A stretch of DNA of 64,000 bases from a virus (IMGVR_UViG_3300031839_002042:1-64000), one strand, 5' to 3'. Shown: positions 20,710 to 47,772, counted from the stretch's first letter. A program made the numbers and translations. The notes: a model not told the origin generated them from the sequence alone.

Positions 20710-20909
20710 TTATTAATCCTAAATATGAAATAGGACAAATAGTCTATTTAAAAACTGATTTAGATCAATTACCAAGGATAGTCTTTGGCTACATCATCTA
20801 TAGATCAGTTGAGATTATTTACAAAATAGCGCATGGAACGAATAATTCAGAGCATTACGAATTTGAGTTGAGCGATGAAAAGGATGTTTTATTGAAATTA
20901 ACTAATTGA
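20706..20909 (+). CDS. hypothetical protein
   Basis: 67-aa ORF. Confidence 0.35.
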   Translation: MIINPKYEIGQIVYLKTDLDQLPRIVFGYIIYRSVEIIYKIAHGTNNSEHYEFELSDEKDVLLKLTN

Positions 20910-22903
20910 CCAAACCCATTCTAAATATCATTGAAGAGAACGAGCGCAGAAAAGCTTTGTTATTCGCCCACTACGATCCAGTAATGGGCGAAGGTTCTCC
21001 ATTGCGTAGATTTCCATTTTTTGTAACATCACAGCAGTCCAGACCTGTTATGTTGCCTATCTCCATGATATCACTTCCTGAAATTGTCCAGGTGATGGAG
21101 GCCGAGGCACGTTCTGCAGAGAATTACGCTATTGACAATGGATTGGATCCAGAGGTTTTCACTAGTGCCATCAACGAGGCAAGATTTGACCATGATTTTG
21201 AGTTCTGGGCAGCAATGACCGTCAAAATCAAGCCAAAGGAAGGAGGAAAACATATTCCTTTTGTGTTGAATGGACCACAGCGGAAACTATTGGCTACACT
21301 GGAAGCTATGAGGCATGAAGGAGTTCCTATTCGTGTTATCATCCTGAAAGCCCGTCAGTGGGGTGGTTCTACACTGGTGCAGATCTACATGGCGTGGATC
21401 CAGATACGGCACAAAACCAACTGGAATTCCCTGATTGCTGCACACATCAACCAGGCAGCTACCAACATTCGTTCGATGTATAAAACATTGGCGCAGTATT
21501 ACCCACTTGACAAAATAGCATTATCCCCATTTGAAGGCACCCAGAATATCAAGATCATACGAAAGCGTGACAATAAGATCACGATTGGATCTATGCAGAC
21601 TCCTGAATCCATACGTTCGGATGATATTGCAATGGCCCACCTTTCAGAAGTTGGTTTGTGGATAAAAACCAAAGGAAAAAAGCCAGAAGATTTGATTCAG
21701 TCTATCCTAGGAACTATCCCTGCCCTACCTTTATCCATGGTTGTGATGGAATCCACCGCTAAAGGCGTGGGCAACTTCTTCCATCAAACATGGTTGGATG
21801 CCAAGAAAAAAGGGACTTATCGACCTGTTTTTGTAGCGTGGTTTGAGATTCAGACTTATTTCATGCCATTCAAGGATGAATTGGAGAAAGCACAGCTGAT
21901 TGCAACCATGGATGAATATGAGTTGTACCTTTGGAGTATTGGGGCAACATTGGAAGGGATCAAGTGGTACCGGTTCAAAAAGGGTGAATACAGAAATAAT
22001 ACAGTCAGTATTGCATCCGAATTCCCAAGCGATGAAATAGAGGCATTCCAAAGTTCCGGAGCTAGATTTTTTTCTGTTTCCACTATTCAAAAAGCAAGAA
22101 GATACAACCGACCTCCATTGTTTGTTGGCGATGTGTTTGCAGATGCTTTGCGTGGACCTGAATCACTCAAAAACATCAAAATAGAACCAGAAAACCAAGG
22201 GCGATTGTCAGTATGGTCAATGCCTGAAACATTCACAGATGTCAAGTACACGAATAGATATGTTGTTTCAGTGGATATTGGCGGTCGAAGCAAGGAAGCG
22301 GATGATTCTGTAATCAAGGTCTATGATCGATTTTGGTTGATGGAAGGAGGTATTCTAGAACTGGCTGCATGTTGGGCAGGAAAGATTGATTTTGACCATT
22401 TGGCATGGAAGGCAGTACAGATTTGTAAGCTGTATGACAATGCTTTTATGGTACCTGAGATCAACAAAATGCGTGAGAATTCAAATACAGATGATTTTGA
22501 TGAAGGGGATCAATTCTACACATTGATTGATGAAGTGTTGGAATTTTATGACAACATTTTCTGTAGAACTACTCCAGAGCAAGTAAGGCAGGGGCTTCCT
22601 AAAGCATGGGGTTTCCATACAAACCGTCAGACAAAACCAATGATCCTAAATACATTGAATGCAGCATACAGGGATGATCAGGTTGCAAACTATGATGTAA
22701 GATCCATGGATCAGGCAGACAGTTTTGAAATCAAAGGAAATGGTTCTACTGGTGCGGTAGAAGGTGCACATGATGACCATGTTATTGCCGATGGGATTGG
22801 AGTTTGGGCAGCGTTAAAACATATGCCTCCAGTAGTAGAGGTAAAAATCAATGCTGAAAGATCAATCAAGCGAAGAAAACTGAACGAAGCTAGTTTTAAC
22901 TAA
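20906..22903 (+). CDS. terL: terminase large subunit
   Basis: 665 aa; P-loop-like VIILKARQWGGSTLVQ is typical of terminase ATPase domains; acidic nuclease-like C-terminal half; follows terS. The track start is a TTG. Confidence 0.7.
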   Translation: MTKPILNIIEENERRKALLFAHYDPVMGEGSPLRRFPFFVTSQQSRPVMLPISMISLPEIVQVMEAEARSAENYAIDNGLDPEVFTSAINEARFDHDFEFWAAMTVKIKPKEGGKHIPFVLNGPQRKLLATLEAMRHEGVPIRVIILKARQWGGSTLVQIYMAWIQIRHKTNWNSLIAAHINQAATNIRSMYKTLAQYYPLDKIALSPFEGTQNIKIIRKRDNKITIGSMQTPESIRSDDIAMAHLSEVGLWIKTKGKKPEDLIQSILGTIPALPLSMVVMESTAKGVGNFFHQTWLDAKKKGTYRPVFVAWFEIQTYFMPFKDELEKAQLIATMDEYELYLWSIGATLEGIKWYRFKKGEYRNNTVSIASEFPSDEIEAFQSSGARFFSVSTIQKARRYNRPPLFVGDVFADALRGPESLKNIKIEPENQGRLSVWSMPETFTDVKYTNRYVVSVDIGGRSKEADDSVIKVYDRFWLMEGGILELAACWAGKIDFDHLAWKAVQICKLYDNAFMVPEINKMRENSNTDDFDEGDQFYTLIDEVLEFYDNIFCRTTPEQVRQGLPKAWGFHTNRQTKPMILNTLNAAYRDDQVANYDVRSMDQADSFEIKGNGSTGAVEGAHDDHVIADGIGVWAALKHMPPVVEVKINAERSIKRRKLNEASFN

Positions 22904-23053
22904 AAAAAGCCATCCCGAAGCGGAACAGCTTTTATCAATGAACAAAACCAACGTAACTATGACTATCTGATGTAAAAATACTTTTTTATGTTGCGGATGC
23001 AACATTTTAATGAAAATTCATGTAATTTAATGCCCACATAATCAGCCAAATTA

Positions 23054-23086
23054 GGCCACACTCTTTCGGGAGTTGTGGCCTTTTTT
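23054..23086 (+). terminator. rho-independent terminator after terL
   Basis: GGCCACA-ctctttcgggagt-TGTGGCC followed by TTTTTTGC. Confidence 0.65.
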
Positions 23087-23105
23087 GCTTTAAACCTAAG
23101 TCAAT

Positions 23106-23606
23106 ATGTTACCAGCACTAGTAGCAGCAGCACCAGCCATTATTTCAGGCATTTCCAGAATATTTGGCAACAAACGAGCTAAGAAGCAAGAAGGGCAAGC
23201 TTCAGAAGGACTTAGCCAATTAGTTGAGCTATTTAAATCCCAGCTAGGACAGGATTATTTTGATTCTGCAGAGGCCAAAGGTGCAGTAAATGCAATCACG
23301 GCCAATGAGCAGGAAAATCTAAACCAGATTGATGCAGCAGGAGCTATCAACGGATTAACCGATGAAGCTAAAATTTCCATGAAAGGAAAGCAGAACAAAG
23401 CTACAGCCAGCGCATTTGCTGACTTGTCACGGTCTGCAAACCTTTGGAAACAGCGAAACCAGCAGATGTACCAAAGCTCACTAGGGCAATTGTTTGGAGT
23501 AGGTCAGAAAAACAGACAGAACTTCAATGACTCTATTAGCAACATTGTTCAGCCATTGCAGAGTAGTGTTGATGGTGCTATGAATGCAGGTTTGTTTGAC
23601 AATTAA
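23106..23606 (+). CDS. putative virion internal protein with hydrophobic N-terminus
   Basis: 166 aa; N-terminus MLPALVAAAPAIISGI is hydrophobic; Gln/Asn/Ala-rich; sits directly upstream of the giant gene. Confidence 0.4.
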   Translation: MLPALVAAAPAIISGISRIFGNKRAKKQEGQASEGLSQLVELFKSQLGQDYFDSAEAKGAVNAITANEQENLNQIDAAGAINGLTDEAKISMKGKQNKATASAFADLSRSANLWKQRNQQMYQSSLGQLFGVGQKNRQNFNDSISNIVQPLQSSVDGAMNAGLFDN

Positions 23607-23617
23607 TCCATAAAACT

Positions 23618-24925
23618 ATGCAGACTAGCGCAGCAGCATTCAACCACAAAAAAAGGTTAGGAGATCCTGCAAAGGATTTGGCAGATGCTATAAATGGGAA
23701 GAAGCTTCAATTAACAGATAATGGATTTGATGCTTCCACTATTCCTGTTTTTCAAGGTTCGAACCAAGTTAAAGAAGCTCAGCAAGTAACTGAAACGAAA
23801 CCTGCATCCCCATCTACCGCAGATTTTCTTTCTTCTATCGTGAATGGAGGTTCAAGATACACTCCTATTCAGAATACAGAAGAGCCAGTTCAGGACGAAG
23901 CTCTACAAGAGAAAATCAAACGTAGGGCAAAAATGAAGCTCATTGGAACAGCGATTGGCAGTTTAGGACAATTGGGAGGTGTAGCAGCTGGAGGTGATGC
24001 TACCAGGTTGGAAGATGGTGTTACTCCTTGGAATTTAAATCAATTACAAATTGCAGATGCAGACTATCGTGATCGTCTGAGAAGTTGGATTGACAGAGGT
24101 TTTACAGTCGATATGTATAACAACCGTCTACAAAATCAAGAAGCTTCAGAGAATTATGAAACTGGTGTAAGACAAGATCAGGCAGCACAAAAAGCCCAAT
24201 ATGATGCCCAATTGGCTGAACAGAGAGCTCAAGCAGCTTTAAATCAACTTACGGCCAAATCTGCCATAGAACAACGTGAGGATATGGCAAAACTGGGAAT
24301 CAATCCAGATGATCCTACAGCACTCGAGCAGTTTTTAGACCTCAACAGAAAGAAATTCGGGGCTGACATGAATTTGACACAAGCCCGGACAAACTCATAC
24401 AATCGATCAAATACTAAATCATCCGATAAAAATTTTGATTTGGATGCTATGAGAAGAGGCCGTGATGCCATGATCATGGATGAAGAGAAAAAACTTCAAG
24501 GATTAGATCCTATTGAGGATGCTGAAAAAATAAAAGCCATCAATGAGAGAATTGCTACGATTCGGAAGCATAATCCTGGTAGTAATGAACTATTGGATGA
24601 TGATATTTTAAAAAGGGCCTCCCAAATAGGAAATAAAGAACCTATCAACTCAGGAAGGGCCGTTCAATTTGATCAAGAACGAGGATTCACCAATATCCCT
24701 AAATCCCAGGATAAAATTTATCAAAACAATAAAAAGTCAGAGATAGAAAAATCTCTTGAAACCAGTGTAAACCAACTTATTTCCCCATCCTTTCAGAAAA
24801 TGGATCAAGTTTCACAAGGACAGATCTTTAATCAAATAATAATGGGTTTACTCGAGTCTGGTGAAGTTCAAACAGAAGCAGAGGCGGAAGCATACATACT
24901 TGAAATCTTAGAAGGCAACAATTAA
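23618..24925 (+). CDS. putative internal/ejection protein (Gln-rich, coiled-coil)
   Basis: 435 aa, low complexity with a coiled-coil centre; its stop abuts the giant ORF start (2-nt gap). Confidence 0.45.
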   Translation: MQTSAAAFNHKKRLGDPAKDLADAINGKKLQLTDNGFDASTIPVFQGSNQVKEAQQVTETKPASPSTADFLSSIVNGGSRYTPIQNTEEPVQDEALQEKIKRRAKMKLIGTAIGSLGQLGGVAAGGDATRLEDGVTPWNLNQLQIADADYRDRLRSWIDRGFTVDMYNNRLQNQEASENYETGVRQDQAAQKAQYDAQLAEQRAQAALNQLTAKSAIEQREDMAKLGINPDDPTALEQFLDLNRKKFGADMNLTQARTNSYNRSNTKSSDKNFDLDAMRRGRDAMIMDEEKKLQGLDPIEDAEKIKAINERIATIRKHNPGSNELLDDDILKRASQIGNKEPINSGRAVQFDQERGFTNIPKSQDKIYQNNKKSEIEKSLETSVNQLISPSFQKMDQVSQGQIFNQIIMGLLESGEVQTEAEAEAYILEILEGNN

Positions 24926-24926
24926 A

Positions 24927-27900
24927 ATGGAGCAAAACAATCCAGCAAACAATGATCTGCTTAAAAAAATCCGTGAAGCAAGGAAAGCAGCATCAAATCA
25001 GACCGACAAGGCAAGTTCAGATCTTAAAAATGCTACTCAAGATCCAGCTAAGAAATCAAATCCGCTTCTAAAGTTTGTTCAAAAACCACAAACTAACACT
25101 GCATTCACCCAGCCAGATACTTTTTCAAACCCTGTTCCACGAGAGCCACAAGCGGAACAGGGCTTTTCTACTCCTAGCCCATTGGTTAGTGATGGTTATC
25201 AAACCGTTACCAAACCATTGCCAAACCCTTCCAAACCATCCAATGTAAGAACACTGGATCAATTTAAGCCGTCTCTTCCTGTTTCAGAGATTCCAAGTCA
25301 AAACCCTACTTATAGAATACTTGGAGACCGTGATCTAAGCAGGGAAGAAACCATGCAGATGATTAGTCAGGCAAAATCAATGAAAGATCTGGAAAGGTTG
25401 CAAGTTGATAATGATCCTGAAGTAATGCAGGGATTTGAAAAAAGGATCAATGAGTTTAAAAATCAATCTTCTCAAACGCAGGTACCAGCCGAAAAACCTG
25501 TGATTGATAAACCTTGGTGGGAAGATACTTGGGATGGAATTAGATCCGGTACCAGATCGGCACTTTCTGCATTGTATGAAGGAGGTTCTGAAATAGCTGA
25601 TTATGTAGGAACTGGTGGACCAATGAACCCTAATTCTATTGGCCAATACAATATGATCAAGCAATTGCAAGCAAAAGGTTTGCGAGGTGCTGGATTAGGC
25701 GCAGGATTGAGAGAAATGGCCGACACAGAAAAGAAACGTGCGGATATCATCAACTCACAAGCAGACACTGAAAGTATAGGCTTCTTTGCAGGACAAATGA
25801 TGCCTTATGTTGCAGGAAGTGCTGCAGCAATTGCTTCGGCTCCAATTTCAGCACCATTGGCAGCAGGTTTGGGCACCGCAAACGTAGGTGCACTTGCTTT
25901 GGCTTCCGTTGGTTCTGGTTTGCAGACTTATGATCAATACAAGGCTGAAAAAGGTCAAGAAGTAGACCCTTATGCACGTCTGGGAGTTGGTCTTTTATAT
26001 GGCGGTGCAGAATTCGCCATGGAAAGGCTATCCCTGAATAAGTTGATGCCTAAGCAGTTCAAAGGAAAGGTAGCCTCAGCTATGTTCGGTGCTGTTCCTG
26101 GTGAAGTGATGGAGAAAGAGGCAAAACAACTGGTTGAAGAATTTGCTAATTCTAATTCCAGCAGAAAAGCAATGATAGATGGATTGCTTAAAGATACCGG
26201 GAAAGGTGTAATAGTAGAAGGATCCACCGAAGCAGCTACCGAAGTAGCCCAAGAATTCACCAATTGGTTGTATTACGAGAAAGAAGATAGAGGTAACTGG
26301 GAAGAACTTGCCAAAAATACCGCTACTGCATTTGCAGGAGGTGCATTGATGGGTGCAGGTTTAGGACCATTATCATATGGTTCTCAACGTTTGGTCAACA
26401 ACAAACGCAGGGAGCAAGCTGGTAAAGTTGTGATTGCACAGAATAGCAATACTGGTGAGGCAGTGGAGATTGTTGGAATATCCGGCCAGAAACCTAAGTC
26501 AGGTAAAAAATCCACAAGTTCCGGAAGTGTAGAAGGTACCGTTGGTTCATCATTAACCTATGATGTAATCCGTCCAAATGGCAGGGTTGCTCAATTAACC
26601 GAAGATGAAGTAGGTGAAGTGATAGAACTTCCTACAGATGTTTTCAAAGGTTTGCTTAACGGGAAAGTTGATGGTCAGTCTGCAGTAGAATCACGGTTGA
26701 ATCAAGAGATAGGCAGTGTAGCCCAGAACCAAGAAGAGGAATTTAAAGCCAAATACGAGCCATATACCTACAATGATCCTATCAATGGTCAGATGATCGC
26801 CATGGGTAAAAGAAATGGAGTTCCTGTTTATATCAAAACACAGACTCCAAACGGATTTCTCATTGTAGATGAAGAAGGTGTAGAAACTTTGGTGCCTCAG
26901 CAAGCATTAACAGAAGTTACACAGATGCCATTCGGTGCATTCCTGGAAACAAATGCTCCTGTTTCTCCTGAAACAGCACCTCCTTTTGATCCTACCAACC
27001 CGATTCAAGTAGGAGAACCAATAAATTATCAAGATGAAAACTGGATAGTGACTGGAATTGATATGGATTCAGGCACAATTCAACTTGAATCAGAGGATTC
27101 AGACGGAATTTTTGAAACTGTTCCAGTTGACTTGCTTCAGCAGTTGAGAAAACCAAAAGAAGAATTGCTTCAAGAATCAACCATGGACTTGGATAGTACT
27201 GGAGCAGGAAAACTCAGAAATATTTTTTCTACTGGTGATCAGGTAAAACTTGAAACCAAAGAATCAAAACTATCCGATTCAAGTCCATTCATGATTCAAG
27301 AAACATTGGACAATGTAGCTTCAAAGCTTGGTATTCCAGCTTTTAAAGCAGGTTCTGTTCATTTTTCTAAAGCGGAAGCTGAATCAAGGAAATGGCTTGT
27401 AGAAAACCTTGGTGAAAAAGGCGATGAAATTGCTGATATCATGGAGTTTCCTCAAGCAGCGAACAGATTAATCGACAGGATTATTCAGACAAAGAAAGTT
27501 GATTCAAAAAGCAATAATTCACAAACCACAACCATAAATGAGCCAATACAGCAAACCGAACCGCAGCAACAAACAGGACAAATTGATGTCCAAGAGGAAA
27601 AAAACCAAGAAAACAGCACCGAAGCATCCGAAGGACAAAAAGGGCTGGAAGGATCAGGAATAAACCAGAATGAAATTGATCGAATAAATTCTGAAAGCCA
27701 ATGGGAAGATGTTAAAACAGCATCAACCAGCGAGGATCTAGCAGAATTGTATGATGTGGAAGTCCAAAACTTGGAAGGTATTAACCCGATCGATAATGCT
27801 ATTGCACAGGTAATAGGTAAAGTCAACCCTGAATCATACGCTAGGTTTGGTGATAGGAACAATATTTCCAAAGGAAGTGCCGGTAATTGGATTTCTAAGA

Positions 27901-39900: not shown

Positions 39901-40184
39901 TTTATAAATCTGATGGAGATACAGCTTCGGCCAGAGCTTTACTTCAAGAAGAACGAGCTAAGTTTTTGATGATTGATGTAGCAAAATTGGTAAACGGTAA
40001 GTTGAAGAAAATCAATGATCAAATTGGTGCAATCAAAGAACGTGATGCTCCTGGAGATAATGAGAAGATAGAAAAGCTGTATGATCAAAGAAATCAGTTG
40101 ATGAATAAATTCAACACCTTGTATTATCAGCGTGTAACTCCTAAAAAAGAAGCACCAACAACATTGGAAGCATTATTCAAATAA
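24927..40184 (+). CDS. giant 5085-aa polyvalent protein, DarB-like anti-restriction / ejection protein candidate
   Basis: Uninterrupted 15,258-nt ORF. The MTase motifs are VLDPSSGIGNYFG (aa ~2194) and ISNIPFG (~2259). The SNF2 motifs are GAGKT (~2865), DESQ (~3029), LSGTPISN (~3081) and LIGSTETMGTGVNVQ...QRNGRGLRQGN (~3340-3380). LHEIIGH lies at ~3824 and an H-G-T / G-x-G-I-Y / E triad at ~3996-4041. Gly/Ala-rich hydrophobic stretches lie at both ends. A hairpin+T6 terminator follows. Confidence 0.85.
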   Translation: MEQNNPANNDLLKKIREARKAASNQTDKASSDLKNATQDPAKKSNPLLKFVQKPQTNTAFTQPDTFSNPVPREPQAEQGFSTPSPLVSDGYQTVTKPLPNPSKPSNVRTLDQFKPSLPVSEIPSQNPTYRILGDRDLSREETMQMISQAKSMKDLERLQVDNDPEVMQGFEKRINEFKNQSSQTQVPAEKPVIDKPWWEDTWDGIRSGTRSALSALYEGGSEIADYVGTGGPMNPNSIGQYNMIKQLQAKGLRGAGLGAGLREMADTEKKRADIINSQADTESIGFFAGQMMPYVAGSAAAIASAPISAPLAAGLGTANVGALALASVGSGLQTYDQYKAEKGQEVDPYARLGVGLLYGGAEFAMERLSLNKLMPKQFKGKVASAMFGAVPGEVMEKEAKQLVEEFANSNSSRKAMIDGLLKDTGKGVIVEGSTEAATEVAQEFTNWLYYEKEDRGNWEELAKNTATAFAGGALMGAGLGPLSYGSQRLVNNKRREQAGKVVIAQNSNTGEAVEIVGISGQKPKSGKKSTSSGSVEGTVGSSLTYDVIRPNGRVAQLTEDEVGEVIELPTDVFKGLLNGKVDGQSAVESRLNQEIGSVAQNQEEEFKAKYEPYTYNDPINGQMIAMGKRNGVPVYIKTQTPNGFLIVDEEGVETLVPQQALTEVTQMPFGAFLETNAPVSPETAPPFDPTNPIQVGEPINYQDENWIVTGIDMDSGTIQLESEDSDGIFETVPVDLLQQLRKPKEELLQESTMDLDSTGAGKLRNIFSTGDQVKLETKESKLSDSSPFMIQETLDNVASKLGIPAFKAGSVHFSKAEAESRKWLVENLGEKGDEIADIMEFPQAANRLIDRIIQTKKVDSKSNNSQTTTINEPIQQTEPQQQTGQIDVQEEKNQENSTEASEGQKGLEGSGINQNEIDRINSESQWEDVKTASTSEDLAELYDVEVQNLEGINPIDNAIAQVIGKVNPESYARFGDRNNISKGSAGNWISKKGTGKQIDLIAQEASDFYGGDNSVSTQDVIDFMEKFTSAENITQPSGNPKLKEISDKYFALTGKKLNKSKAAKIRKELKGKSISKNDKGELLESDDQIADYLSNNPSIGEFLSNEFSNEDGSLNYEEALKILDTDPDWFTVFPGGFKENEVNSIRTILTNKLNEQSGNQGTNSAVSPASEADGGNQSRNDLPEAENKVDQTGSGVVDSREQQKPDSTDPQPTGEPKSRGRKSSRSNPSSSTVKLDEKAQKLTDELKDLWGQFGAGDKLRSGVSGQDFELAGKIIAKSAELGLVKFEQIINWVGENLGQETLRQKFDSFKAAYAAQLIFNNPQNEDLNAISKKKADDFIVEEKSEQTLFEEEVSSYVDGYYTDKNGLERKIKGVKFYQDETNRILLRLEKGNIILNGKEIRDAIDNTGDGPKFSNTKSEQSEPEVKSVKNETDRPTRKDILNDSSNPFVKKFKGLSYDQVEKWRIANKQPEGKTADQFWKYYFALQAEHQYQTLKSRNPQFTENHKAKAKVNGKEVELTYTIGISDRRPIEERTMFSAVNFSASNLDHIQKGLHIQGYINNLPNWDGPQTLEEAFRRMIEQRAKESSKKIIPVTIDDFRITGPNEESVPETTPILDNSGLVQLDLFGNPINVKNAKPGKSTKNIQTLEDQEKSSRSKVETIKDRKSATKQLKVVDDLLSEIENELKLAGYYNAGDLADKNEYPHYEHEKVFKKDLVKFSKALAKELGWEHRTDKKGKPIYAQTNIAPAGGDGDFTLFDPNSNQGVYISVNVSPDYESPSDNDPLIIDGKTRNWGGSGGDNAFLWRYATKEQPYGDGQNRWADSKTSVAEFKKKILDQLPSASPATKPTSLTEMIEAGEGRIMVVKPTPDKVEQPESTSKKEESSSEKVELDPDWNQSVSKAAAAIKKLGLTIPKSKAESMFDPDLRLKQLVDFVNSYLNDTFGNENPITDGKQGSGSNGQVRPTSGQSTKREQTSTVRPNEGNRNSQEISSGEAGGNESTDGQTEGTGLRPDNSRGTGKRKTDGDSGNERVNDSEIDGFGKADQSKLEKKTKQRKKNEANFSIPEGFSYPDTFKVAERFDANIKAIELVVEMIKENRNESTPEEKQVLFGYSGFGGIPDIARNPNYTYERFDSDAMRSRVKKVYDLINEIDPDGKLGVLSSLKSSINTAHYTEPEIIRAHYDLISKMGFQSGKVLDPSSGIGNYFGSMPVPMSQDAILTGVEMDYLTSEIFRRMYPGSKAINKPLQDANIVEGTFDLAISNIPFGSTKIYDPSWKGKKQPIYRIAQQKIHNYFVVKMIESAKEGGLISILTSNAVMDTESNRPIRQYMADNTYFIGAVRLPNTAFKGASGTKVVTDILFLQKRKAGESVSQQNPFVESSTQTKDGSKYSLNEYFISNPQNILGEIVGGGQYDAETGYTVEGSAENLRSKIVAALEKSAVTINYSPANDIELAKDGRQTEAYSGKDTIRSGNVFEKNEDFYEAVERNSNGEFTGEKINVFKKYVEPFRDFISIRQSLNELIDNERFGQPDSVLDPLRKKLKSSYNKFNNNHGRLNEYKNVFSADIDSFQVLALEVLDEKGKFKGLADIFEKRTINPNIRPTSADNPQEAILISLNEYNKINPARMQELLGENWLEQSKGLLFELPNGTYESRDQYLSGDIWEKIQQVKDNPAFKENLTELEKVLPKPIPFELISIPLGARYVDIDVYNEFIKDTFNTRAKIAYLEGLDSYKMSFTIHSDEYSTSRINTNEVIEKAFSDQTIRINNTIRHSDGSTTTEFNPVETAAANAVVDKLKTAWKTWLAGKQDIGNKIAETYNRLFNSTVKRRFDGSHMTFPGLRGITPRTHQADGINMLVQNNGGIIDHVVGAGKTLIMVIGSMELKRLGVAKKPLIIGKKSTVPQIYEAFQKAYPGAKVLAPTDKDFTASKRKKILSQIAVNDWDAIILTHENYGNILPDPETAVQVMQEEIDLLKLTVEEMRGMEKSQMTRKEIKGMEKRIDNLTAKIKELSDLNKDTEIMDFGKLGIDHIMVDESQSFKNLTYSTVHNNVAGLGTKDGAKKTYNLLMGVRHLQKIHKGDKGTTFLSGTPISNTMAELYLILKYLRPNKLRELGISTFDAWAKTFAEKSSELEFGVSGALKAKERFRRFINVPELAKLYTDIADVRNDSNLKLPKPGIKGGKEDFVLIKPSRNLEKFYKKLIHYATSGDGSVMNIEGLDYSSEEAKKAKMLKITDLATKASIDLRLVYPQAPFDPNSKLANVAADIASVYKETAKHKGVALAFMDSGKTSQYNPLFNGEREIKRILIDIYGVKPDEIQLMADHQTDAKKEKLFKKVNKGEVRVLIGSTETMGTGVNVQERVLAMRHVDIPWRPSDYEQRNGRGLRQGNIIAEDFYNNEVDVKVYGVERSLDAYKFELLAIKQHFIDQIKNGATSDRIMDEGEGDEDNGASFSEFMAAATGNPIIKEKAKNDKLLDQLNTSRIAFANRQGRARAMIERYNKGIANAESVISQLELYNSIAQKTKINEDYQLLVGGKPYEKVGEAGDALLDMRPYSEQAIELMKKGGQNLTPQATANGWDLYVFDKKMIDGTPFKNYIIAVTDPETGKRYYPKSGELAQGSVYVANTLKKYVNSIENQILDNQSYIKDEATKYIEQSKKVLEEKWPDEEKYQKALADQSRIAAEVAVMNEQEGKKNAEDSDVSSPMFSDDDPNPSPDKPTFFKKPNSLSEMMDRASMRATINPVEKPASTKQVEQWANEISKNWETKPEIKVFDNASQVIKSFPELEEYKSEIAEVPGMMIRNPRTGATQVVLIASHSYLNNKEGVDITLLHEIIGHYGLREGLRQRAKGNEAEYIKKYQDLMDVIFEAKKNDPMMSDIASRYFGRKIDALTKIQQTTVADEYIAHLAQTGIKDTFTDRIISKFRELLRSIGIDLKFNDSDLLNLIGNSRRFVEGKRKVNGNITDGVKFIKVKQDQTQTPAFKAWFGNSKVVDENGEPKIMYHGTNNEFTEFKISTKGALGAGIYLTPYKEDALKHGKIAMPVYVKIENPKIVNNREEDTQLLGSSLIYRRKKGIETFDGVIDQYGQMLALDPTQIKSANGNNGDFDGTNPDIRFMKVSDGSMPTPVRKATEEVAKKSWSELATERLQDHMVMSKKLINEKTAGKDPVKDKADFYTKENLSKGRALVQSENFVNKYWNPFLETAKQIVKETGLKQSDISDYLKAKHHGERKKYFIDKERESFTAMQNAKYMFSPELQVEYSPLEWADKIDADFEKKIKKYDATWPTGMTDEWADETVSNFESTVAEKQVKTLNKQVKAMSVFVNKKRFTSGMISKTVYNELMTQYQNYVPLRDWAGLEGMNENVYSPLMSAKGRTSEAADPIPFLFTAAQEAIMRGENNLVRQSLLEFVKEHVSPGDYFIRSAWYVKTGEQDEFGNDIWKETQNKPTQAQIDSGDAMRSFDPDVHRSVQQQGERKNVLPVLVKGKKVFIEFKNSEIPMAMKNLNQEQVPGWLSPIRSYTRWLSSMYTQYSPEFGFRNLIRDMGFAGFNISTERGLKTAAKTYSQVAKSMKTLTQFFWNEGEYPTGKDGNYLKEYMEEGAMTGYSDLKEVKEIFETAKREIDGLNAKGWQGVKSKVGSGFETALKPIDVYNRTFENAMRFAYYKTLREDGVSKQQSAIAAKDLTVNFNRKGTWSAGLGSIYIFFNASVQGTQTLLSKFAKPETRKKAYGFAGSIMALGMIQSIILGLSSDDDDDGKTYYEKIPDYIRRNNIIIPLPKQGEYMKIPLPYGLNVFYAMGESLGRVITGQGKPGMEALGVASVASNAFSPLGGYDFTSDNQRPFQGVAQLFTPSALQPVTDLMLNQNFAGFPIYRENFTPTQYKRPDSQMYFEGVNPAIRTVTDALNSATGGDQVKSGLIDINPEWIEYGFEQYFGGPVQFGQNAYATLAAIAGGENILKDPYYRKVPLLRSFMQKSGTEYQIKQDYYTNYNEIQAAKQAYELYKSDGDTASARALLQEERAKFLMIDVAKLVNGKLKKINDQIGAIKERDAPGDNEKIEKLYDQRNQLMNKFNTLYYQRVTPKKEAPTTLEALFK

Positions 40185-40190
40185 AAAGAA

Positions 40191-40213
40191 AGCCTGAGAA
40201 ATCAGGCTTTTTT
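40191..40213. terminator. bidirectional rho-independent terminator after the giant gene
   Basis: AGCCTGA-gaaa-TCAGGCT followed by TTTTT; it also ends the convergent minus-strand gene. Confidence 0.7.
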
Positions 40214-40466
40214 AATGATCTACTTTTGATTTCCGAAGAACAAATAACCAGATTCCAAACATCATCCATGCGGAATAGTATGCAATGATTAGGTAATCAT
40301 ATGCTAACCCTTCGGGTACCATTCGGAAAGGCCACTGAACGATTAAGCCAAAAAATATCATTCCTACACATATCCAGCACAAAGTAAAAAACACTGAGAG
40401 TACTGAAATCATAAATATTGATTGCTTCCAGTTTTCCTTCGTGATATGTTTGTCGAATAATCTCAA
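40212..40466 (-). CDS. small membrane protein
   Basis: 84 aa with two or three TM helices, convergent with the giant gene. Confidence 0.4.
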   Translation of the reverse strand: MRLFDKHITKENWKQSIFMISVLSVFFTLCWICVGMIFFGLIVQWPFRMVPEGLAYDYLIIAYYSAWMMFGIWLFVLRKSKVDH

Positions 40467-40586
40467 AATCAGTGGTTAAAGAACTCCAAATGAAAAGAAA
40501 AAACCTCTTATTTACAATACTTTTTTACTGAATTCCTATATTTGATCAAAGCCGGGAAGTCCTAGCTTAAAATAATCAGGTCAAAA

Positions 40587-40627
40587 CCCACAGCCTTGCG
40601 TAAATGCGCAGGGATGTGGGTTTTTTT
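40587..40627 (+). terminator. terminator-like hairpin + T7 immediately upstream of the portal-like gene
   Basis: CCCACAgccttgcgtaaatgcgcagggaTGTGGG then TTTTTTT. The track N-terminus MRRDVGFF of ORF 40604 is this hairpin read as codons. Confidence 0.5.
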
Positions 40628-40639
40628 ATTTATACCCTC

Positions 40640-42679
40640 ATGGAAAAACCACTCAATTCATCCCAGGAAAATATGACCGGTTCGGGAATAGACTGGTCAA
40701 ATTACAAGGAGTATCGCTTGTCTGATGAACAGATTGAAAGTGCTACCAATTTAGTGTTTGATGATCCAGAATTAGAAGAGTATGCCTATCGCCTTTTAGA
40801 AGATTGTCATACTTATTATGAAAACAACGAAGATTTCAGAAAAAGAAGAGAGGAATGCAGGGATTTTTATAAAGGTGATCACTGGAATGCAAAAATGAAG
40901 CATCCCGATACCGGTGAATGGATTACCCAGAAAGAATATATCCAGGAACAGAACATGGTTCCGCTTAAGCAAAACCAAATCAGGCAGATTCTTAAAAATA
41001 TGCTTGGGCAGTTCCGGGATAATAACAATGATAATATGGTCGTTTCCCGAGACCGTAATAAACAACAGCTTGGGGAAATGATGACAAAAGCCCTGCAGTA
41101 TTCCAAGCAGGCCAATCAAGGAAAAGAACTAGATGTAAGGCTATTTGAAGAATTTTTAATATCTGGTTACTTCGGATGTAAAACTTCCTATAGGTACATT
41201 TCAAAACGTGACATTGAAGATGTATGGATCGACATGGTTCACGCAAATCGAATTTTTTATAACACAGGTATTACCGATATCAGATTACATGAAATCCATA
41301 CCATAGGTGAAATATTGGATATGAGATTGGAAGATATAATTTCCAATTTTGCCAAAAATGAAGCAGATGCACAAACTATCCGTGAATGGTATGGAGCCGA
41401 AGAATCCGGAAGAAGAAACCGTGCATCCTACGGTATGACACTTCAAGACAGTTCGATTGTAGACAACATTGATTTTTATACTCCAGAAGATCCTTCCACA
41501 TGTAGAGTTTTTGAAATATGGGAAAAAATCAACACCAAAGTGTTTTTTGTCCATGATCCATACCATGCAAAAACCTATACAACGACAGAAACAGAAGAAG
41601 AGCTTCAGGAGCAAAATAACCAACGTATTCAGGAAGGGTTGGCTTATGGCATTCCAATGGAAGCGATTCAAGGTACTTTGTTGGATTGGGAAACTAGATA
41701 TGAGGATATCTGGCATTTCTGGTTTTTAACTCCAAATGGAAAAATCCTTTACCATGGAGAAACCCCTTATGACCATCAAGAAACACCATACACAATAGGT
41801 TTATATCCATTGGTGGACGGTAATGTTTGGGGAATGGTATATGATATCCTAGATCAACAAAAGCAGATCAACAGGCTATTGACTATGATGGATAAAATCA
41901 TTGGAGCAAGTGCAAAAGGAGTTCTTTTGGTTCCTGAAGGAGCAGTTCCAGAAGGATGGGATATTGATGATTTTGCCAGTGAATGGACAAAATCCAATGG
42001 AGTCATTAAATATAAACCTCTCCCAGGAGGGCAAAAACCAGAACAGATCCAAGCAAACAGCTTGAATGTAGGTGCTATCGAACTACTTCAGATTCAGTTC
42101 AATTTGCTTCGTGAGATTTCAGGAATAACAGATGCTATCCAAGGACAACGCCCAGCTGCAGGAACGCCATCTAGTTTATATGCGCAACAAACAAACAATG
42201 CAGCACTGAACAACAGGGATTATTTTGATTTCTTCAATTCCAGACTAGTGGAAAGGGATTTTAAAATAGTGAAGCTACAACAGCAATACTATGAAGAAGA
42301 TCGAATGATTATAATTTCAGGTCAAGAGTTTGATAATGCGATTGATTATTATGAGGTAGATAAAGTAAAAGACCTTGAATTTGAAATGGCCATGGGCCCA
42401 GGAATGAACTCTACTGTATTCAGACAGGTCTATGAAGATGCACTATTCAAGTTCCTTGAAATGGGCTTGATAGACCGGGATATTTACTTGAAAACTACTT
42501 CTATGCCTTTTGCCGACAAACTAAGATCAGCGATCAACGAACAGCAGGTAGAGCTACAAAAAGCCCAGGAACAACTTGCTGCCACGGGTGGAGATCCAGC
42601 CGGTAACCCACAAGCCATGCAACTACTGCAGCAATATGCTGGAATGGGCGGACAACAGCCAATGCAAGGAGCAGCTTAA
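40640..42679 (+). CDS. putative portal protein
   Basis: About 680 aa, the size and position expected of a portal; Gln/Gly-rich C-terminal tail. No recognisable motif, so the call is tentative. The start is moved to ATG 40640. Confidence 0.4.
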   Translation: MEKPLNSSQENMTGSGIDWSNYKEYRLSDEQIESATNLVFDDPELEEYAYRLLEDCHTYYENNEDFRKRREECRDFYKGDHWNAKMKHPDTGEWITQKEYIQEQNMVPLKQNQIRQILKNMLGQFRDNNNDNMVVSRDRNKQQLGEMMTKALQYSKQANQGKELDVRLFEEFLISGYFGCKTSYRYISKRDIEDVWIDMVHANRIFYNTGITDIRLHEIHTIGEILDMRLEDIISNFAKNEADAQTIREWYGAEESGRRNRASYGMTLQDSSIVDNIDFYTPEDPSTCRVFEIWEKINTKVFFVHDPYHAKTYTTTETEEELQEQNNQRIQEGLAYGIPMEAIQGTLLDWETRYEDIWHFWFLTPNGKILYHGETPYDHQETPYTIGLYPLVDGNVWGMVYDILDQQKQINRLLTMMDKIIGASAKGVLLVPEGAVPEGWDIDDFASEWTKSNGVIKYKPLPGGQKPEQIQANSLNVGAIELLQIQFNLLREISGITDAIQGQRPAAGTPSSLYAQQTNNAALNNRDYFDFFNSRLVERDFKIVKLQQQYYEEDRMIIISGQEFDNAIDYYEVDKVKDLEFEMAMGPGMNSTVFRQVYEDALFKFLEMGLIDRDIYLKTTSMPFADKLRSAINEQQVELQKAQEQLAATGGDPAGNPQAMQLLQQYAGMGGQQPMQGAA

Positions 42680-42712: not shown

Positions 42713-42740
42713 CCCAGACTATGATTGGTCTGGGTTTTTT
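42713..42740. terminator. bidirectional terminator between the portal-like gene and the minus-strand cassette
   Basis: CCCAGAC-tatgattg-GTCTGGG followed by TTTTTT. Confidence 0.6.
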
Positions 42741-43471
42741 CTTAGATAAGGCATTGATTGTCCCATATCGCTTTCATCAAACAAATAATGAGTATTGCAT
42801 TTTTCACAATGTGATTTATAAGTCCATCCTTGATTTATTGTTCCATCGTGAATAATTTTTTCTCCACATTCTACACACAAACCTTTTCTATATTTTAAAT
42901 CTATCTGGTCTTGGGAATAGTCTTTTACAATTTGAAAATTAACACTTTCTGATTTTGATAAACCACTATTAAAATCAATAGATAAATCTACAATCCCAAT
43001 TTCACCATGCTTAAGAAACTTTGAGTTAAAAACCCCTATTTTACCGTGATCAGTTTCGATTTCAATCTTGTTAGGATGGTTCTCAGGATGAACAAGTAAA
43101 TGCGCTTCGCCTTTTTTCATGAACGGAATAGGAAGAACATCAACCCTAAATCCAATCGGGATATTAGGTATCACCATAGCATCTTTTAGTTTTATACGTT
43201 CAGATAACACCAAATCAAGCCTGTCCCCAATTCTACATCCATGTTGTGAGTGTTCCCCATTAGGTTCTTTTTCGATACCAGCTTCATCCAACCGTTGGTG
43301 AACATAATCTTTGAAGGCTTGGAGTTTAGAAGGTTTTTCTTCCAAGTGATCAATGTACGCATCCAGCGCATGGATATATTGTTTCAATTCAGGGTTTTCC
43401 TGAAACATTTTAGCAACATCCTTTGGGGTAAAATCCTCCGGAAAGAAAGTGGTAATGGTGGGACGGTTCAT
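42719..43471 (-). CDS. hypothetical protein with C-terminal zinc-ribbon
   Basis: 250 aa; the C-terminus CVECGEKIIHDGTINQGWTYKSHCEKCNTHY is a C-x2-C ... C-x2-C ribbon. Confidence 0.5.
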   Translation of the reverse strand: MNRPTITTFFPEDFTPKDVAKMFQENPELKQYIHALDAYIDHLEEKPSKLQAFKDYVHQRLDEAGIEKEPNGEHSQHGCRIGDRLDLVLSERIKLKDAMVIPNIPIGFRVDVLPIPFMKKGEAHLLVHPENHPNKIEIETDHGKIGVFNSKFLKHGEIGIVDLSIDFNSGLSKSESVNFQIVKDYSQDQIDLKYRKGLCVECGEKIIHDGTINQGWTYKSHCEKCNTHYLFDESDMGQSMPYLRKNPDQS

Positions 43472-43472
43472 T

Positions 43473-43685
43473 TTATTGTTTTTTAGGTATAAATTTTAAT
43501 CCGTAACCAAATGAACCTGAATTATCTTTTCCATATTTGGCATTCAAAGGATTTTCATGCAACCATAGATAAAAGATGAATTTTTTGATATCGGTTCGTT
43601 CTTGTTTAAAATCCTCATACAAGTTGTGTTGAGCCCTAATTTCATCGCTTATTTCAAAGCATTCATGCACTGGTCTAAATTCCAT
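43473..43685 (-). CDS. hypothetical protein
   Basis: 70-aa ORF. Confidence 0.4.
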   Translation of the reverse strand: MEFRPVHECFEISDEIRAQHNLYEDFKQERTDIKKFIFYLWLHENPLNAKYGKDNSGSFGYGLKFIPKKQ

Positions 43686-43688
43686 ACC

Positions 43689-43946
43689 TCAATCAATAAA
43701 ACCTCTATTTTTCAATGTTTTTGGATCACAAAGGATCGCTTTATCCGAATATTCATGTTCTGAAAGCTCTAGATATACAGGAACTTTCCCATTGATCAGT
43801 TCTTTGCTGTCATAGGTACGGCCTTTCTTGCCTGACTTAGTGATTACTAGCTGTCCTGGGTTTTTCATAGGAGTATTAACATTAAATCTTAGGTAAGTCA
43901 TTAAAATTGATTTCTCTCCTATTCTCATTCTCTTTATGCTCTGCAT
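43689..43946 (-). CDS. hypothetical protein
   Basis: 85-aa ORF. Confidence 0.4.
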   Translation of the reverse strand: MQSIKRMRIGEKSILMTYLRFNVNTPMKNPGQLVITKSGKKGRTYDSKELINGKVPVYLELSEHEYSDKAILCDPKTLKNRGFID

Positions 43947-44160
43947 GAGAAATTACCACATTCAGAACATCCCGAAGAACTTGGATAAGTTGGCCACATT
44001 CAGCTATAGATAATGGCAGGTCAGCAGCTTTTCCCTTGAGTATCACTACATCATTATTAGTATCAGCTACAAAGTTTAAGGCTATGCCTCCTTTTGAAAA
44101 CTGAAATCCTGTAATATTAACCGTAGCCTGATCCTTACTTTCGCTCATTTTTTTGGTCAA
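43882..44160 (-). CDS. hypothetical protein
   Basis: 92-aa ORF; overlaps the downstream gene by 65 nt, so the true start may be later. Confidence 0.35.
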   Translation of the reverse strand: MTKKMSESKDQATVNITGFQFSKGGIALNFVADTNNDVVILKGKAADLPLSIAECGQLIQVLRDVLNVVISHAEHKENENRREINFNDLPKI

Positions 44161-44476
44161 TAGTATGAATCATGAAAAATAGACTTGTAATCAGATCACT
44201 AAATTCAGTAGGAACTGTAGTGATTTCGTATTGACCAAATTTGTTTCGATTAATATTGAACCCTTCTCTTCTGAGATAGGAAATATGCCTATCAATGGTT
44301 CTTTTTGAAACATTCAACTCTTTCGCCAACGTTCTTAAGTGAATTGGTTTTTCAGAAAGAATCTTCACTAATTCAAACCTTTCAGATATATTAGAAATGA
44401 AATTTACTTGGGTTTTATTCCTTTTCAATCGGTCATAATCTCTAACCAATACAGACATTTCTTCGACTTCCATCAT
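44135..44476 (-). CDS. HTH-domain transcriptional regulator
   Basis: LRTLAKELNVSKRTIDRHISYLRREG is an HTH_11/DeoR-like helix-turn-helix. Confidence 0.55.
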   Translation of the reverse strand: MMEVEEMSVLVRDYDRLKRNKTQVNFISNISERFELVKILSEKPIHLRTLAKELNVSKRTIDRHISYLRREGFNINRNKFGQYEITTVPTEFSDLITSLFFMIHTIDQKNERK

Positions 44477-44645
44477 AACTTAATTTTAGTGTTAGGGATC
44501 AAACCGATTATCAAGCCTTTTGGCGTACTGACAGGGAGCATTTTCTTATCCAGTTTTTTATGATCCAATCCATTTTCCTTGCACAGGACATCCAGTGAAT
44601 AATACAGCTTGTATTCATTCCCATTATGTAGTAAATACTCCATAG

Positions 44646-44972
44646 TTATACTTTTAAGAACCGAACAGACAGGTAATTTTTAGTAGGAACCTCTTTCAAT
44701 TCACAGCCAATTTCTCTGGATCTAAGTTCCATGGCAGATTTCTCATTGTTCCACATGTTTTTTAGAGCGGATTTAAGAATCACAGATCTATTGGAAATCT
44801 CCACTGTATCACCTGCGTTAACTTCAGAATAATCCTTTACCGCTCCATTGAAAGGAAGTTTATCATAATTCCATGTCATAGCTTGATTTTGTCTAATTGT
44901 TTTTGGTGGATTTATTGTGAATGCAATGAAAACATTGAATATCCCAAGGGCTATAGATTTGATTCGCTGCAT
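44646..44972 (-). CDS. small secreted protein
   Basis: 108 aa; N-terminal signal-like MQRIKSIALGIFNVFIAFT. Confidence 0.45.
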   Translation of the reverse strand: MQRIKSIALGIFNVFIAFTINPPKTIRQNQAMTWNYDKLPFNGAVKDYSEVNAGDTVEISNRSVILKSALKNMWNNEKSAMELRSREIGCELKEVPTKNYLSVRFLKV

Positions 44973-44985
44973 AAGATTGTTGTTT

Positions 44986-45013
44986 AAAAAGTCCCGGATT
45001 ACGGCACCGGGAC
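44986..45013 (-). terminator. rho-independent terminator on the minus strand, downstream of the tRNA-like element
   Basis: Minus strand reads GTCCCGG-tgccgtaat-CCGGGAC followed by TTTTT. Confidence 0.6.
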
Positions 45014-45062
45014 AAACCTGCTCGACACGCTAAAACACATTTGCTTCATTCGCTTGTGGTTG

Positions 45063-45087
45063 TGGAGAATACAGGATTCGAACCTGT
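45063..45087 (-). other. tRNA 3'-end-like fragment (T-arm plus acceptor 3' strand), candidate att core or pseudo-tRNA
   Basis: Minus strand reads ACAGG-TTCGAAT-CCTGT-ATTCTCC-A, a perfect T-stem/T-loop followed by a 7-nt acceptor strand and discriminator. No D-arm or anticodon arm folds upstream. Confidence 0.5.
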
Positions 45088-45304
45088 GAAGTACCACCAG
45101 ATGAAAGGCAGCCTGACTAAAGAAAAGCAATCATCCCATTCCCCTAGTTAAAATAAAAGGCCAACTCCTTTTTCGGCATCTAAATGTTCCGTAGTCGGGT
45201 TTTTTCGGAATTCTGACAGGTGTTGTTACTCCTGAAATTGTGATTGACAAATACCCATATCAAGCACTCCACACATGGACTATATAGGAACGGTATGTAT
45301 ATCT

Positions 45305-45661
45305 TTATTTTTTATTTCTTCTAATCTGATCTCCAGGAATGATCTGAAAATTCACCCTGTCACCTACTTGAAATGCACCAGGATATTCCACTATCCAAAC
45401 AGACCTTGCATTTATTCCTCCTGGGTTGATCGGGATGATTTTATAGAACACAAAGCCTTCGGACCATTTGTATTCCAGTGTTTTCATTTCTGAAACAGCC
45501 CAGATTGTAGGTTCCTCAGGAATATTCATGTTGCGCTTTGCTACGCAACCAAAAAAGGCCATTACCATAAATGAGATCACCACAATCATGACGATTAGCG
45601 TTCTCACTAAGTATTTCAAACCTTCTTTGAAAATATCTTCGAATGGATCTTCAGCTGACAT
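45305..45661 (-). CDS. membrane protein
   Basis: 118 aa with one TM helix (LIVMIVVISFMVMAFF). Confidence 0.45.
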   Translation of the reverse strand: MSAEDPFEDIFKEGLKYLVRTLIVMIVVISFMVMAFFGCVAKRNMNIPEEPTIWAVSEMKTLEYKWSEGFVFYKIIPINPGGINARSVWIVEYPGAFQVGDRVNFQIIPGDQIRRNKK

Positions 45662-46052
45662 GATTCGCCTCCTTTCTATTCATTTCCAACTTGTTTTTAT
45701 CGACCACTAATCCTTGATCGATATATTCATCTCCAAAAATCCAGAAGTGATGTTTTACCAGTTCTTGGTAATAGTGATACCTCAGATTACCAGATAGCAA
45801 TCCTTGGATATTTGATGCCGAAAACAATGGATTCCAACCAAATTGATCTCCAAGTGATTTTTCACTGCCTTCTGGAATATAATAATGAAGCCATGCAAGC
45901 CTATAGCAAACGGGTTTACCATTACCTTTTTCGATAGCTCTTATATGTGTTACAGATTGAAGAGGTAATAACTCACGATATGAAGTATCAATTAATAAAC
46001 CAGTGTTTAGGTAAAGTTTTAATTGATCAAAAGTGATTTTCAACTCAGGCAT
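45651..46052 (-). CDS. hypothetical protein
   Basis: 133 aa; SD-like GAGGAGG upstream. Confidence 0.45.
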   Translation of the reverse strand: MPELKITFDQLKLYLNTGLLIDTSYRELLPLQSVTHIRAIEKGNGKPVCYRLAWLHYYIPEGSEKSLGDQFGWNPLFSASNIQGLLSGNLRYHYYQELVKHHFWIFGDEYIDQGLVVDKNKLEMNRKEANHVS

Positions 46053-46431: not shown

Positions 46432-46510
46432 TCCTGATTGATTTGATTGATTCCTAAAATTTGCCACTGTTGGTAGGCACTGGCGACCGTCCTTTATCAA
46501 AAGCTCCTAG

Positions 46511-47644: not shown

Positions 47645-47772
47645 CAGACTTCGACCGAGACGAAAACGTCTCCAACAAAAATTTTAAGCTGGCCGTATTG
47701 GCAGTTTTATTCATTGGAACCCTTGTAATGGTGGTTCTGGATTGTATGGACTTTTTTCAAAAATGGGGGTAA
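47641..47772 (+). CDS. small membrane ORF (43 aa) not in the ORF track
   Basis: ATGA overlap with the upstream stop; reads MTDFDRDENVSNKNFKLAVLAVLFIGTLVMVVLDCMDFFQKWG*; preceded by CAATCAATCAGATCAGGAAAA. Confidence 0.3.
   Translation: MTDFDRDENVSNKNFKLAVLAVLFIGTLVMVVLDCMDFFQKWG

Follow-up and report, generated by a model that had tools for sequence, protein, structure and literature searches.

A 5085-residue phage-type polyvalent protein and two linked partner genes as a putative head-packaged cassette in a metagenomic phage contig

Packaged and injected polyvalent or DarB-like proteins are already in the literature (Iyer et al. 2017; phage JC1, 2022; phage phi24B, 2026), and PMC9144972 and PMC8402733 cite Gill 2011, on Bcep22, among the earlier descriptions. 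According to Iyer et al. (2017, PMC5512222), the DarB family has the architecture LPD36, methyltransferase (MTase) and helicase, P1 DarB is the archetype of the MTase-helicase dyad, and LPD38 is restricted to phage-type polyvalent proteins. About 40 DarB molecules are packaged per P1 head with the help of small proteins (PMC9024508). JC1 is a Bcep22-like podovirus closely related to DC1, and its gp69, the counterpart of DC1 gp67, is 79% identical to Bcep22 gp75; 51 unique peptides of gp69 were recovered from CsCl-purified virions, and peptides of gp67 (196 amino acids, aa) and gp68 (510 aa), encoded just upstream, were also detected there (PMC9144972). phi24B gp47, with LPD5, LPD1, LPD38 and MuF-C, is abundant in proteomics of virions and is missing from the cryo-electron microscopy map; the authors of that study suggest that it is packaged in the capsid and serves as an ejection or conduit protein (bioRxiv 10.64898/2026.04.10.717836). 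Casjens and colleagues count giants such as Pavtok gp27 (5007 aa) among the putative ejection proteins, which must be at least partly unfolded in order to pass (PMC8402733). PTXU04_00025 (gp25), annotated with LPD38 alone, is critical for infection. Here we describe a related locus in a 64,000-nucleotide (nt) stretch of viral DNA (IMGVR_UViG_3300031839_002042:1-64000, hereafter the window), which is part of a 98,420-bp metagenome contig of the Joint Genome Institute (JGI). Its gene for a 5085-aa protein (the giant), preceded by two partner genes, is a very large addition to an already described system.

Coordinates were taken from a scan of the window for open reading frames (ORFs), and families were assigned by Pfam and PHROG scans. 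The small partner gene (166 aa; 23106-23606, +), the medium partner gene (435 aa; 23618-24925, +) and the giant gene (24927-40184, +) are separated by only 11 nt and, between the medium stop and the giant start, 1 nt. Upstream are terS, for the terminase small subunit (18827-19423, +; Pfam Terminase_2, 5e-24; phrog_51, 1e-21), and terL, for the large subunit (20906-22903, +; phrog_2, 1e-20; listed start codon TTG); downstream is a P22-type portal gene (691 aa; 40604-42679, +; PF16510, 1.5e-42; phrog_156, 7e-60). The order terS, terL, 166 aa, 435 aa, 5085 aa, portal had been given in the initial annotation, and the scan returned it with identical coordinates, all on the + strand. Strict contiguity did not hold, as at least three small ORFs lie between terS and terL, and a hairpin and a minus-strand ORF (40212-40466) intervene between the giant and the portal. 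A terminator-like hairpin with a U-run (23053-23087, +; minimum free energy (MFE) -18.1 kcal/mol, z -4.5, a stability reached by 0 of 200 shuffles) sits about 20 nt 5' of the start of the 166-aa gene. A second, bidirectional terminator-like hairpin lies directly 3' of the giant's stop (40186-40213; MFE -16.1 kcal/mol, z -4.8; assigned to the minus strand by the scanner). As read from the DNA, small, medium and giant genes thus make up one tightly packed predicted operon bracketed by terminator-like hairpins. The giant ORF runs uninterrupted for 15.3 kb in DNA of about 39% GC, which is far beyond chance. An assembly artefact was considered and rejected, as independent JGI and Logan contigs carry an identical 435-aa protein and giant start; equally long ORFs in relatives also speak against it.

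The domain content of the giant identifies it as a predicted phage-type polyvalent protein, because an MTase, an SF2 helicase, ART-PolyVal and LPD38 occur in one ORF of a portal-terminase phage genome. At least two effector domains are fused, the phage-restricted LPD38 is present, and portal-terminase packaging genes and an integrase are encoded in the window. The giant is also DarB-like, in that an N6-adenine MTase is fused to a C-terminal SF2 helicase. The DarB-type N6-adenine DNA MTase domain (aa ~2042-2420; 31050-32186, +) matches PF07669 (Eco57I, 1.5e-6, aa 2249-2338) and phrog_11801 (2e-57), and its NIPFG motif was found by eye alone; a phmmer search of this region against the PDB matched 2f8l (hypothetical protein lmo1582) and the BseCI methylase. 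The SF2/SNF2 helicase (aa ~2839-3382; 33441-35072, +) matches ResIII (7e-5), SNF2-rel_dom (4e-10) and Helicase_C (2e-7). The central 1900 residues of the giant match phrog_10089, 'DarB-like antirestriction' (E=2e-284), in agreement with the antirestriction-type activities assigned to the giant at the outset; an ADP-ribosyltransferase is present as well (ART-PolyVal, PF18760, 6e-16; aa 3986-4099; 36882-37223, +). LPD38 (PF18857, 1e-35, above the curated cut-off) occupies aa 4751-4944. Between the helicase and ART-PolyVal, an HEIIGH motif (aa 3825-3830; 36399-36416, +) was read from the sequence; its context, LHE[IV][IV]GH.GLRE, recurs in BF1-TP2 gp68 and in the giant of a Bacteroidales metagenome-assembled genome (MAG; JAGLOO010000037.1, locus L017), and it is a candidate zincin-like metallopeptidase site.

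The first ~2000 residues of the giant gave no database match, either with Pfam (E<=1, 2100 aa) or in a PDB sequence search (2050 aa). A MuF domain (Phage_Mu_F), present as MuF-C in some other LPD38 carriers, was not matched by Pfam or PHROG in the giant, the 166-aa protein or the 435-aa protein. No LPD36 match turned up in the general Pfam scan of the giant (E<=0.01), no dedicated comparison having been made. The precomputed JGI domain list for the giant has WH_1 and DUF8437 instead. By hydropathy there are three hydrophobic or uncharged segments, at aa 291-330, 465-486 and 4721-4739; the first two are the hydrophobic Gly/Ala stretches of the initial annotation, and they are real.

Both ends of the giant are conserved. 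The N-terminal conserved domain (aa ~190-620; 25494-26786, +) contains both Gly/Ala stretches together with the motif EGsTEA. Alignments of close relatives show good conservation of this domain, which is matched by the N-terminus of BF1-TP2 gp68 (hhalign E=4e-5, probability 70%), is recognisable in the L017 giant and aligns weakly in DC1 and JC1. The C-terminal module of about 800 aa (aa ~4279-5071; 37761-40139, +) includes LPD38 and has an NFNRKG motif, a basic stretch, a transmembrane (TM)-like helix (aa 4721-4739; nt 39087-39143) and a DDDDD patch. By BLASTP it matches BS-TP4 gp3 (5391 aa, 1e-55), BF1-TP2 gp68 (3633 aa, 2e-42) and DC1 gp67, 'DarB-like' (4650 aa, 3e-55), in each case at the extreme C-terminus. 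An exhaustive phmmer search with the module returned 8743 representative clusters (50% identity), 4954 of them at E<=1e-30, and in these clusters the module is nearly always C-terminal in proteins of 1000-6000 aa. The TM-like helix (19-aa hydropathy >=1.3) is found in 28 of 38 family members, and a run of at least three consecutive D/E in 36 of the 38. The AlphaFold2 (AF2) model of the module has a mean confidence (pLDDT) of 80.7, and its matches in BFVD include the PTXU04 LPD protein; against the PDB there was no sequence match, and the best Foldseek hit had E=0.055 and a template-modelling score of ~0.1. What lies between the ends varies. BS-TP4 gp3 shares the C-terminal module alone with the window giant, the L015 giant (3851 aa) has LPD23 and ART with MTase and helicase absent, and the L017 giant (3101 aa) has InPase, LPD5 and LPD1. 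These comparisons are evidence that such giants are built of conserved end modules around an exchangeable middle payload.

Neither partner protein has a recognisable domain in Pfam or PHROG. In the 166-aa protein, the hydrophobic N-terminus noted initially was confirmed by hydropathy; this Gly/Ala segment (aa 2-20) is followed by a basic stretch and a helical region with a G-L-T-D-E-A motif. A hidden Markov model (HMM) of six close small proteins scored 29.2 bits with a 201-aa protein of L015 and 12.1 bits with BF1-TP2 gp70, and the best of 500 shuffles of each reached 9.0 bits. Because these scores exceed the best shuffles, the small family is homologous across the clades of the window, L015 and BF1-TP2; the same HMM showed no relation to JC1 gp67 or to a 264-aa ORF of L017. 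The 435-aa protein has a basic stretch and a Gly-rich segment (aa ~100-128) followed by a charged helical region. Its earlier description as a Gln-rich coiled coil is overstated (Gln 8.7%, Ala 9.9%). The protein is rare, with 3 clusters among 5.8 billion proteins, and a scan for related loci in IMG/VR returned nothing. Comparisons of its family with BS-TP4 gp2, BF1-TP2 gp69 and DC1 gp66 were not significant by BLASTP or hhalign, and HMM scores fell within shuffle noise. In L017 (7512-9583) the 264-aa ORF lies 5' of a 418-aa medium protein and is its partial paralogue, with the common block ...LKGVSITPDL..MMY.G...KPRALKDID.NENVQDESIRDL...; the shared block suggests a tandem duplication of the medium gene that replaced a small gene of the 166-aa type.

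Relatives keep the trio and not its surroundings. The order small (166-202 aa), medium (331-468 aa), giant is present in L003, L004, L006, L013, L014, L015, BS-TP4 and BF1-TP2. In the first five of these loci the trio is directly 3' of terL, whose orthologues there are 661-665 aa long, and the 435-aa family is always between the small protein and the giant. In L015 the trio adjoins RecT and PDDEXK genes. In BS-TP4 it adjoins the portal, with terL on the portal's other side, and in BF1-TP2 it is on the opposite strand, away from the adjacent terL and portal genes. In L017 the medium and giant genes lie between a PrimPol gene and helix-turn-helix regulators, and the upstream 264-aa ORF is outside the small family. 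DnaJ genes are also among the neighbours of the trio across relatives. In the loci fetched, small and medium genes never occur without an adjacent giant. Comparison with relatives, a check to which the placement between terminase and portal had been open, therefore retained the trio and not that placement; since the trio occurs in widely different neighbourhoods, the conserved feature is the cassette rather than the terminase-portal position. The best explanation is a portable cassette of a phage-type polyvalent protein and two accessory proteins. A nucleotide search of the terL-trio DNA against cultured phages gave no match.

Two of the related loci have features of their own. In L003 (IMGVR_UViG_2788500522_000002; 11803-17010) the giant seems to be divided: one ORF encodes 187 aa, another 1530 aa, and a 512-aa ORF comes after them. 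The break falls just 5' of the conserved N-terminal domain and may reflect a real split of the gene, a frameshift or a faulty assembly. BS-TP4 (L001; 26961-34898 and 35987-37477) has a second very large gene, gp14 (2645 aa), without similarity to the window giant, and this gene is the target of a diversity-generating retroelement with the reverse transcriptase gp17 (PMC12694917).

The giant is probably packaged in the virion, and its delivery with the DNA is the best-supported reading because LPD38-class homologues have been found in purified virions. The initial annotation had argued for such delivery from gene placement. The conclusion stands by homology to virion proteins; the argument from placement is weak, because T7 and P22 differ, the giants of Lessievirus and Pavtok end the morphogenesis module, and the cassette is far from head genes elsewhere. 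Ejection genes had likewise been said to occupy equivalent positions in P1, T7 and P22. This fits ulx-darB-prt of P1 and does not fit the other two, in which the genes for T7 gp14-16 and P22 gp7/16/20 come after those for capsid and tail rather than in the interval from terminase to portal.

As a mechanism, a cassette with a packaged, ejected giant and co-packaged helpers is rather likely. The giant would be made late, enter the procapsid in low copy number and be expelled through portal and tail, at least partly unfolded, before or along with the DNA. A delivery chassis for capsid targeting, passage and possibly engagement of the envelope or membrane would be formed by the conserved ends, with the Gly/Ala-rich domain at the N-terminus and the LPD38 module at the C-terminus, and the interchangeable middle would be the payload. 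The DarB-like N6-adenine MTase and SNF2 helicase would shield incoming DNA from restriction, and the ADP-ribosyltransferase would modify host proteins. The candidate HExxGH peptidase may cleave the polyprotein into separate units. As co-packaged helpers in loading or ejection, the 166-aa and 435-aa proteins would be analogous to Ulx, Hdf and DarA of P1; operon linkage and the analogous JC1 pair point to their possible residence in the virion.

Several results weigh against packaging and ejection as proposed here. The virion evidence comes entirely from phages other than this one and its Bacteroidota relatives, and the paper on the cultured relatives does not include proteomics. For the medium protein, position is conserved, and homology to its counterparts in other clades or to JC1 gp68 and DC1 gp66 was not demonstrable by sequence comparison. 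JC1 gp67 is unrelated to the 166-aa family. In the absence of demonstrable homology, the virion mass spectrometry of the JC1 upstream proteins transfers to the 166-aa and 435-aa proteins by analogy alone. No Pfam model matches the HEIIGH region in a scan at E<=1, and the window giant, unlike the JC1 giant with its SLT-like N-terminus, gave no match to a peptidoglycan hydrolase domain. Because the C-terminal module is predicted to be a compact helical domain, its hydrophobic helix could be buried core.

In a different account the giant, alone or with both partners, is itself a trans-envelope conduit. Its hydrophobic segments would insert in host membranes and replace T7 gp14-16 or P22 gp7/16/20 functionally, with the enzymes secondary. 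The channel-forming role envisaged in the initial annotation belongs here, and both the conduit and that role are possible but doubtful. A channel is favoured by the conserved TM-like element, which with the basic stretch and acidic patch recurs in 28-36 of the 38 family members, and by the PTXU04 phenotype, since a protein with LPD38 alone that is critical for infection argues for a core and not an accessory function. Also in keeping with it are the Gly/Ala stretches in the conserved domain at the giant's N-terminus and the hydrophobic start of the 166-aa protein; a conduit role was proposed by the phi24B authors, and the window yielded no further protein recognisable as an ejection protein. 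The JC1 giant begins with an SLT-like motif, and so does T7 gp16. However, neither sequence nor fold shows similarity to solved ejectosome components, and none is among the BFVD matches. Only about three hydrophobic segments occur in all 5085 residues, and the AF2 model puts the hydrophobic helix inside a folded helical domain. The true ejection proteins could instead be encoded 3' of the capsid gene, by the gene for a 1067-aa protein (57077-60280) and several unannotated genes.

Two further accounts would detach the giant from the virion or the partners from the giant. An unpackaged giant that works in the cytoplasm of the cell producing it, where it might for instance methylate progeny DNA and remodel proteins of the host, would owe its position to late co-expression or a permissive insertion site. 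The insulation of the trio by terminator-like hairpins and its replication and recombination neighbourhoods in L015, L017 and BF1-TP2 agree with this, as do the two stand-alone DNA methyltransferases of the phage that act in the cell. It is nevertheless very improbable: the LPD38-bearing giants in this comparison that had been examined by virion mass spectrometry, JC1 gp69 and phi24B gp47, were both found in particles, LPD38 is limited to phage-type polyvalent proteins, and a 15-kb gene (~15% of the 98-kb contig) is costly for a function that small MTases already cover. That the two partner proteins have nothing to do with the function of the giant, being head-assembly, scaffold or decoration factors or morons merely upstream, is improbable as well. 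Their lack of recognisable domains, the lack of detectable homology of the medium protein across clades and the position of the L017 264-aa ORF outside the 166-aa family would all accord with it. On the other hand, the order and tight junctions of the trio persist far from head genes in L015 and BF1-TP2, the small family is homologous between these and the window clade, and the partner genes were never seen apart from an adjacent giant in the loci fetched.

The packaged cassette can be taken further. Small, medium and giant might be a self-contained, horizontally mobile effector-delivery cassette that loads a polyprotein of several thousand residues into unrelated capsids and threads it into the cell, with membrane insertion by the basic/TM/acidic element and a freely swappable middle; this remains a tentative and rather unlikely proposal. 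All that loading and threading require would then come from the two partners and from the conserved N- and C-terminal modules of the giant. The payloads would be MTase-helicase-ART in the window, InPase/LPD5/LPD1 in L017 and LPD23/ART in L015. If it is true, the LPD38 module is a widespread, structurally uncharacterised ejection or translocation device.

In some phages 15-25% of the genome is given over to giant polyvalent proteins, and infection depends critically on at least one of these proteins. In 2021 Pavtok gp27 was described as the longest phage protein known, and the window giant is among the longest phage ORFs in the comparison. The question such proteins pose is how 2000-6000 residues are packaged and pass through a short tail. 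What the present locus adds is evidence, in Bacteroidota phages, for a portable unit made up of the giant and two partner genes dedicated to it, and for a chassis-plus-payload architecture, together with a module of 8743 clusters without a solved homologue. Because the cultured gut Bacteroides phages BS-TP4, BKO1-TP3 and BF1-TP2 carry the same cassette, these ideas are experimentally approachable.

The remainder of the window provides the setting. A tyrosine-type integrase (1-1218; phrog_1, 5e-22) and an Ant anti-repressor (15952-16764) are encoded, and for this reason the phage is taken to be temperate; it is of Bacteroidota type. A RecE-like exonuclease and a DnaD-like loader are further temperate-phage genes in the genome. 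As the contig spans 98 kb, the window may represent a prophage flanked by host DNA that lies beyond it. The portal is 33% identical to the portals of BS-TP4, BKO1-TP3 and BF1-TP2. A strong hairpin with a U-run (40583-40631, hairpin 40583-40624, +; MFE -27.9 kcal/mol, z -6.1) covers the listed portal ATG (40604), and because that codon falls within it the true start is probably Met13 at nt 40640 (MEKPLNSS...). The minus-strand ORF 40212-40466 (84 aa from TTG, ~67 aa from Met) is convergent with the giant, and the bidirectional hairpin is common to both 3' ends. Its translation is probably a strongly hydrophobic membrane protein with 2-3 TM helices, which could be immunity, superinfection-exclusion or lysis-related.

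Downstream of the portal, about eight small minus-strand genes (42719-47104) split the head module between the portal and the scaffold and capsid genes; their largest product, of 250 aa, has no PHROG match. The genes for a stand-alone C5-cytosine DNA methyltransferase (47742-49889; PF00145, 1e-29) and a stand-alone N6/N4 DNA methyltransferase (49868-50662; PF01555, 2e-9) are both placed between the portal and capsid genes, so that three MTase activities are predicted for the phage, counting the adenine MTase domain of the giant. The major capsid protein is of the SU10 type (53664-55067). The 1067-aa protein encoded 3' of it has one hydrophobic segment (aa 251-274) and no informative family match, and it could be a tail or ejection protein and a real component of the conduit. 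The DC1 'internal virion protein' gp61 was compared with it as a possible relative and showed no similarity.

Among described systems, the Bcep22-like podoviruses (Lessievirus: Bcep22 gp75, DC1 gp67, JC1 gp69) and Erwinia phage Pavtok (gp27) are similar to the window phage in having proteins of 4500-5000 aa in podovirus-type genomes. These phages have distantly related P22-type portals, and their giants have in common with the window giant the DarB-type MTase-helicase core (phrog_10089) and, ending the protein, a homologous LPD38 module of about 800 aa (3e-55 for DC1 gp67). Before the giant gene come genes for one or two virion proteins of medium size and after it small minus-strand ORFs, an arrangement that the window resembles; in Bcep22-like phages two such ORFs follow the DarB-like giant directly (PMC9144972). 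The JC1 giant is proven to be virion-associated. The differences are that the giant gene of Lessievirus and Pavtok ends the morphogenesis module, before lysis, whereas that of the window lies between terL and portal. The N-terminal SLT-like lytic transglycosylase motif of their giants is absent from the window giant, their upstream proteins have no detectable homology to the 166-aa and 435-aa proteins, and their host phylum differs from that of the window phage.

The phage-type polyvalent proteins of Iyer, Burroughs, Anand, de Souza and Aravind (2017), as set out in the available text (PMC5512222), are multi-effector polypeptides with the MTase-helicase dyad, ART-PolyVal and LPD38, as is the window giant; they are encoded in portal-terminase genomes, and packaging and injection are predicted for them. 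The N-terminal domain and ~800-aa C-terminal module of the window giant extend beyond the 189-position Pfam model of LPD38, and that text gave no description of linked small and medium genes. phi24B gp47 (from an Stx podovirus) and PTXU04_00025 are LPD38-bearing giants like that of the window, and the predicted C-terminal fold of PTXU04 gp25 matches the model of the window module. They are much shorter (2811 aa and 2198 aa) and, unlike the window giant, neither has an MTase-helicase: the payload is LPD5/LPD1/MuF-C in the former, and none is annotated in the latter.

T7 gp14, gp15 and gp16 and P22 gp7, gp16 and gp20 are capsid-internal proteins that are expelled before the DNA, some with hydrophobic segments, and a functional analogy with the window giant is possible. 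They are far smaller and are without anti-defence enzymes, unlike the window giant, in which no similarity to T7 or P22 ejection proteins was found by sequence or fold (Pfam, PHROG, PDB, Foldseek, BFVD). In the P1 Dar system (Ulx-DarB beside the portal Prt; Hdf, DarA, DdrA, DdrB), homology of Ulx, Hdf and DarA to the 166-aa and 435-aa proteins did not turn up, no direct comparison having been made. P1 is a myovirus, and its DarB is 2255 aa long against 5085 aa for the window giant. The two proteins share the MTase-helicase dyad, and DarB is packaged in the head, is thought to enter the cell with the DNA and needs small helper proteins for packaging. The order ulx (17 kDa)-darB-portal in P1 parallels the order from the small gene through the giant to the portal in the window (PMC9024508).

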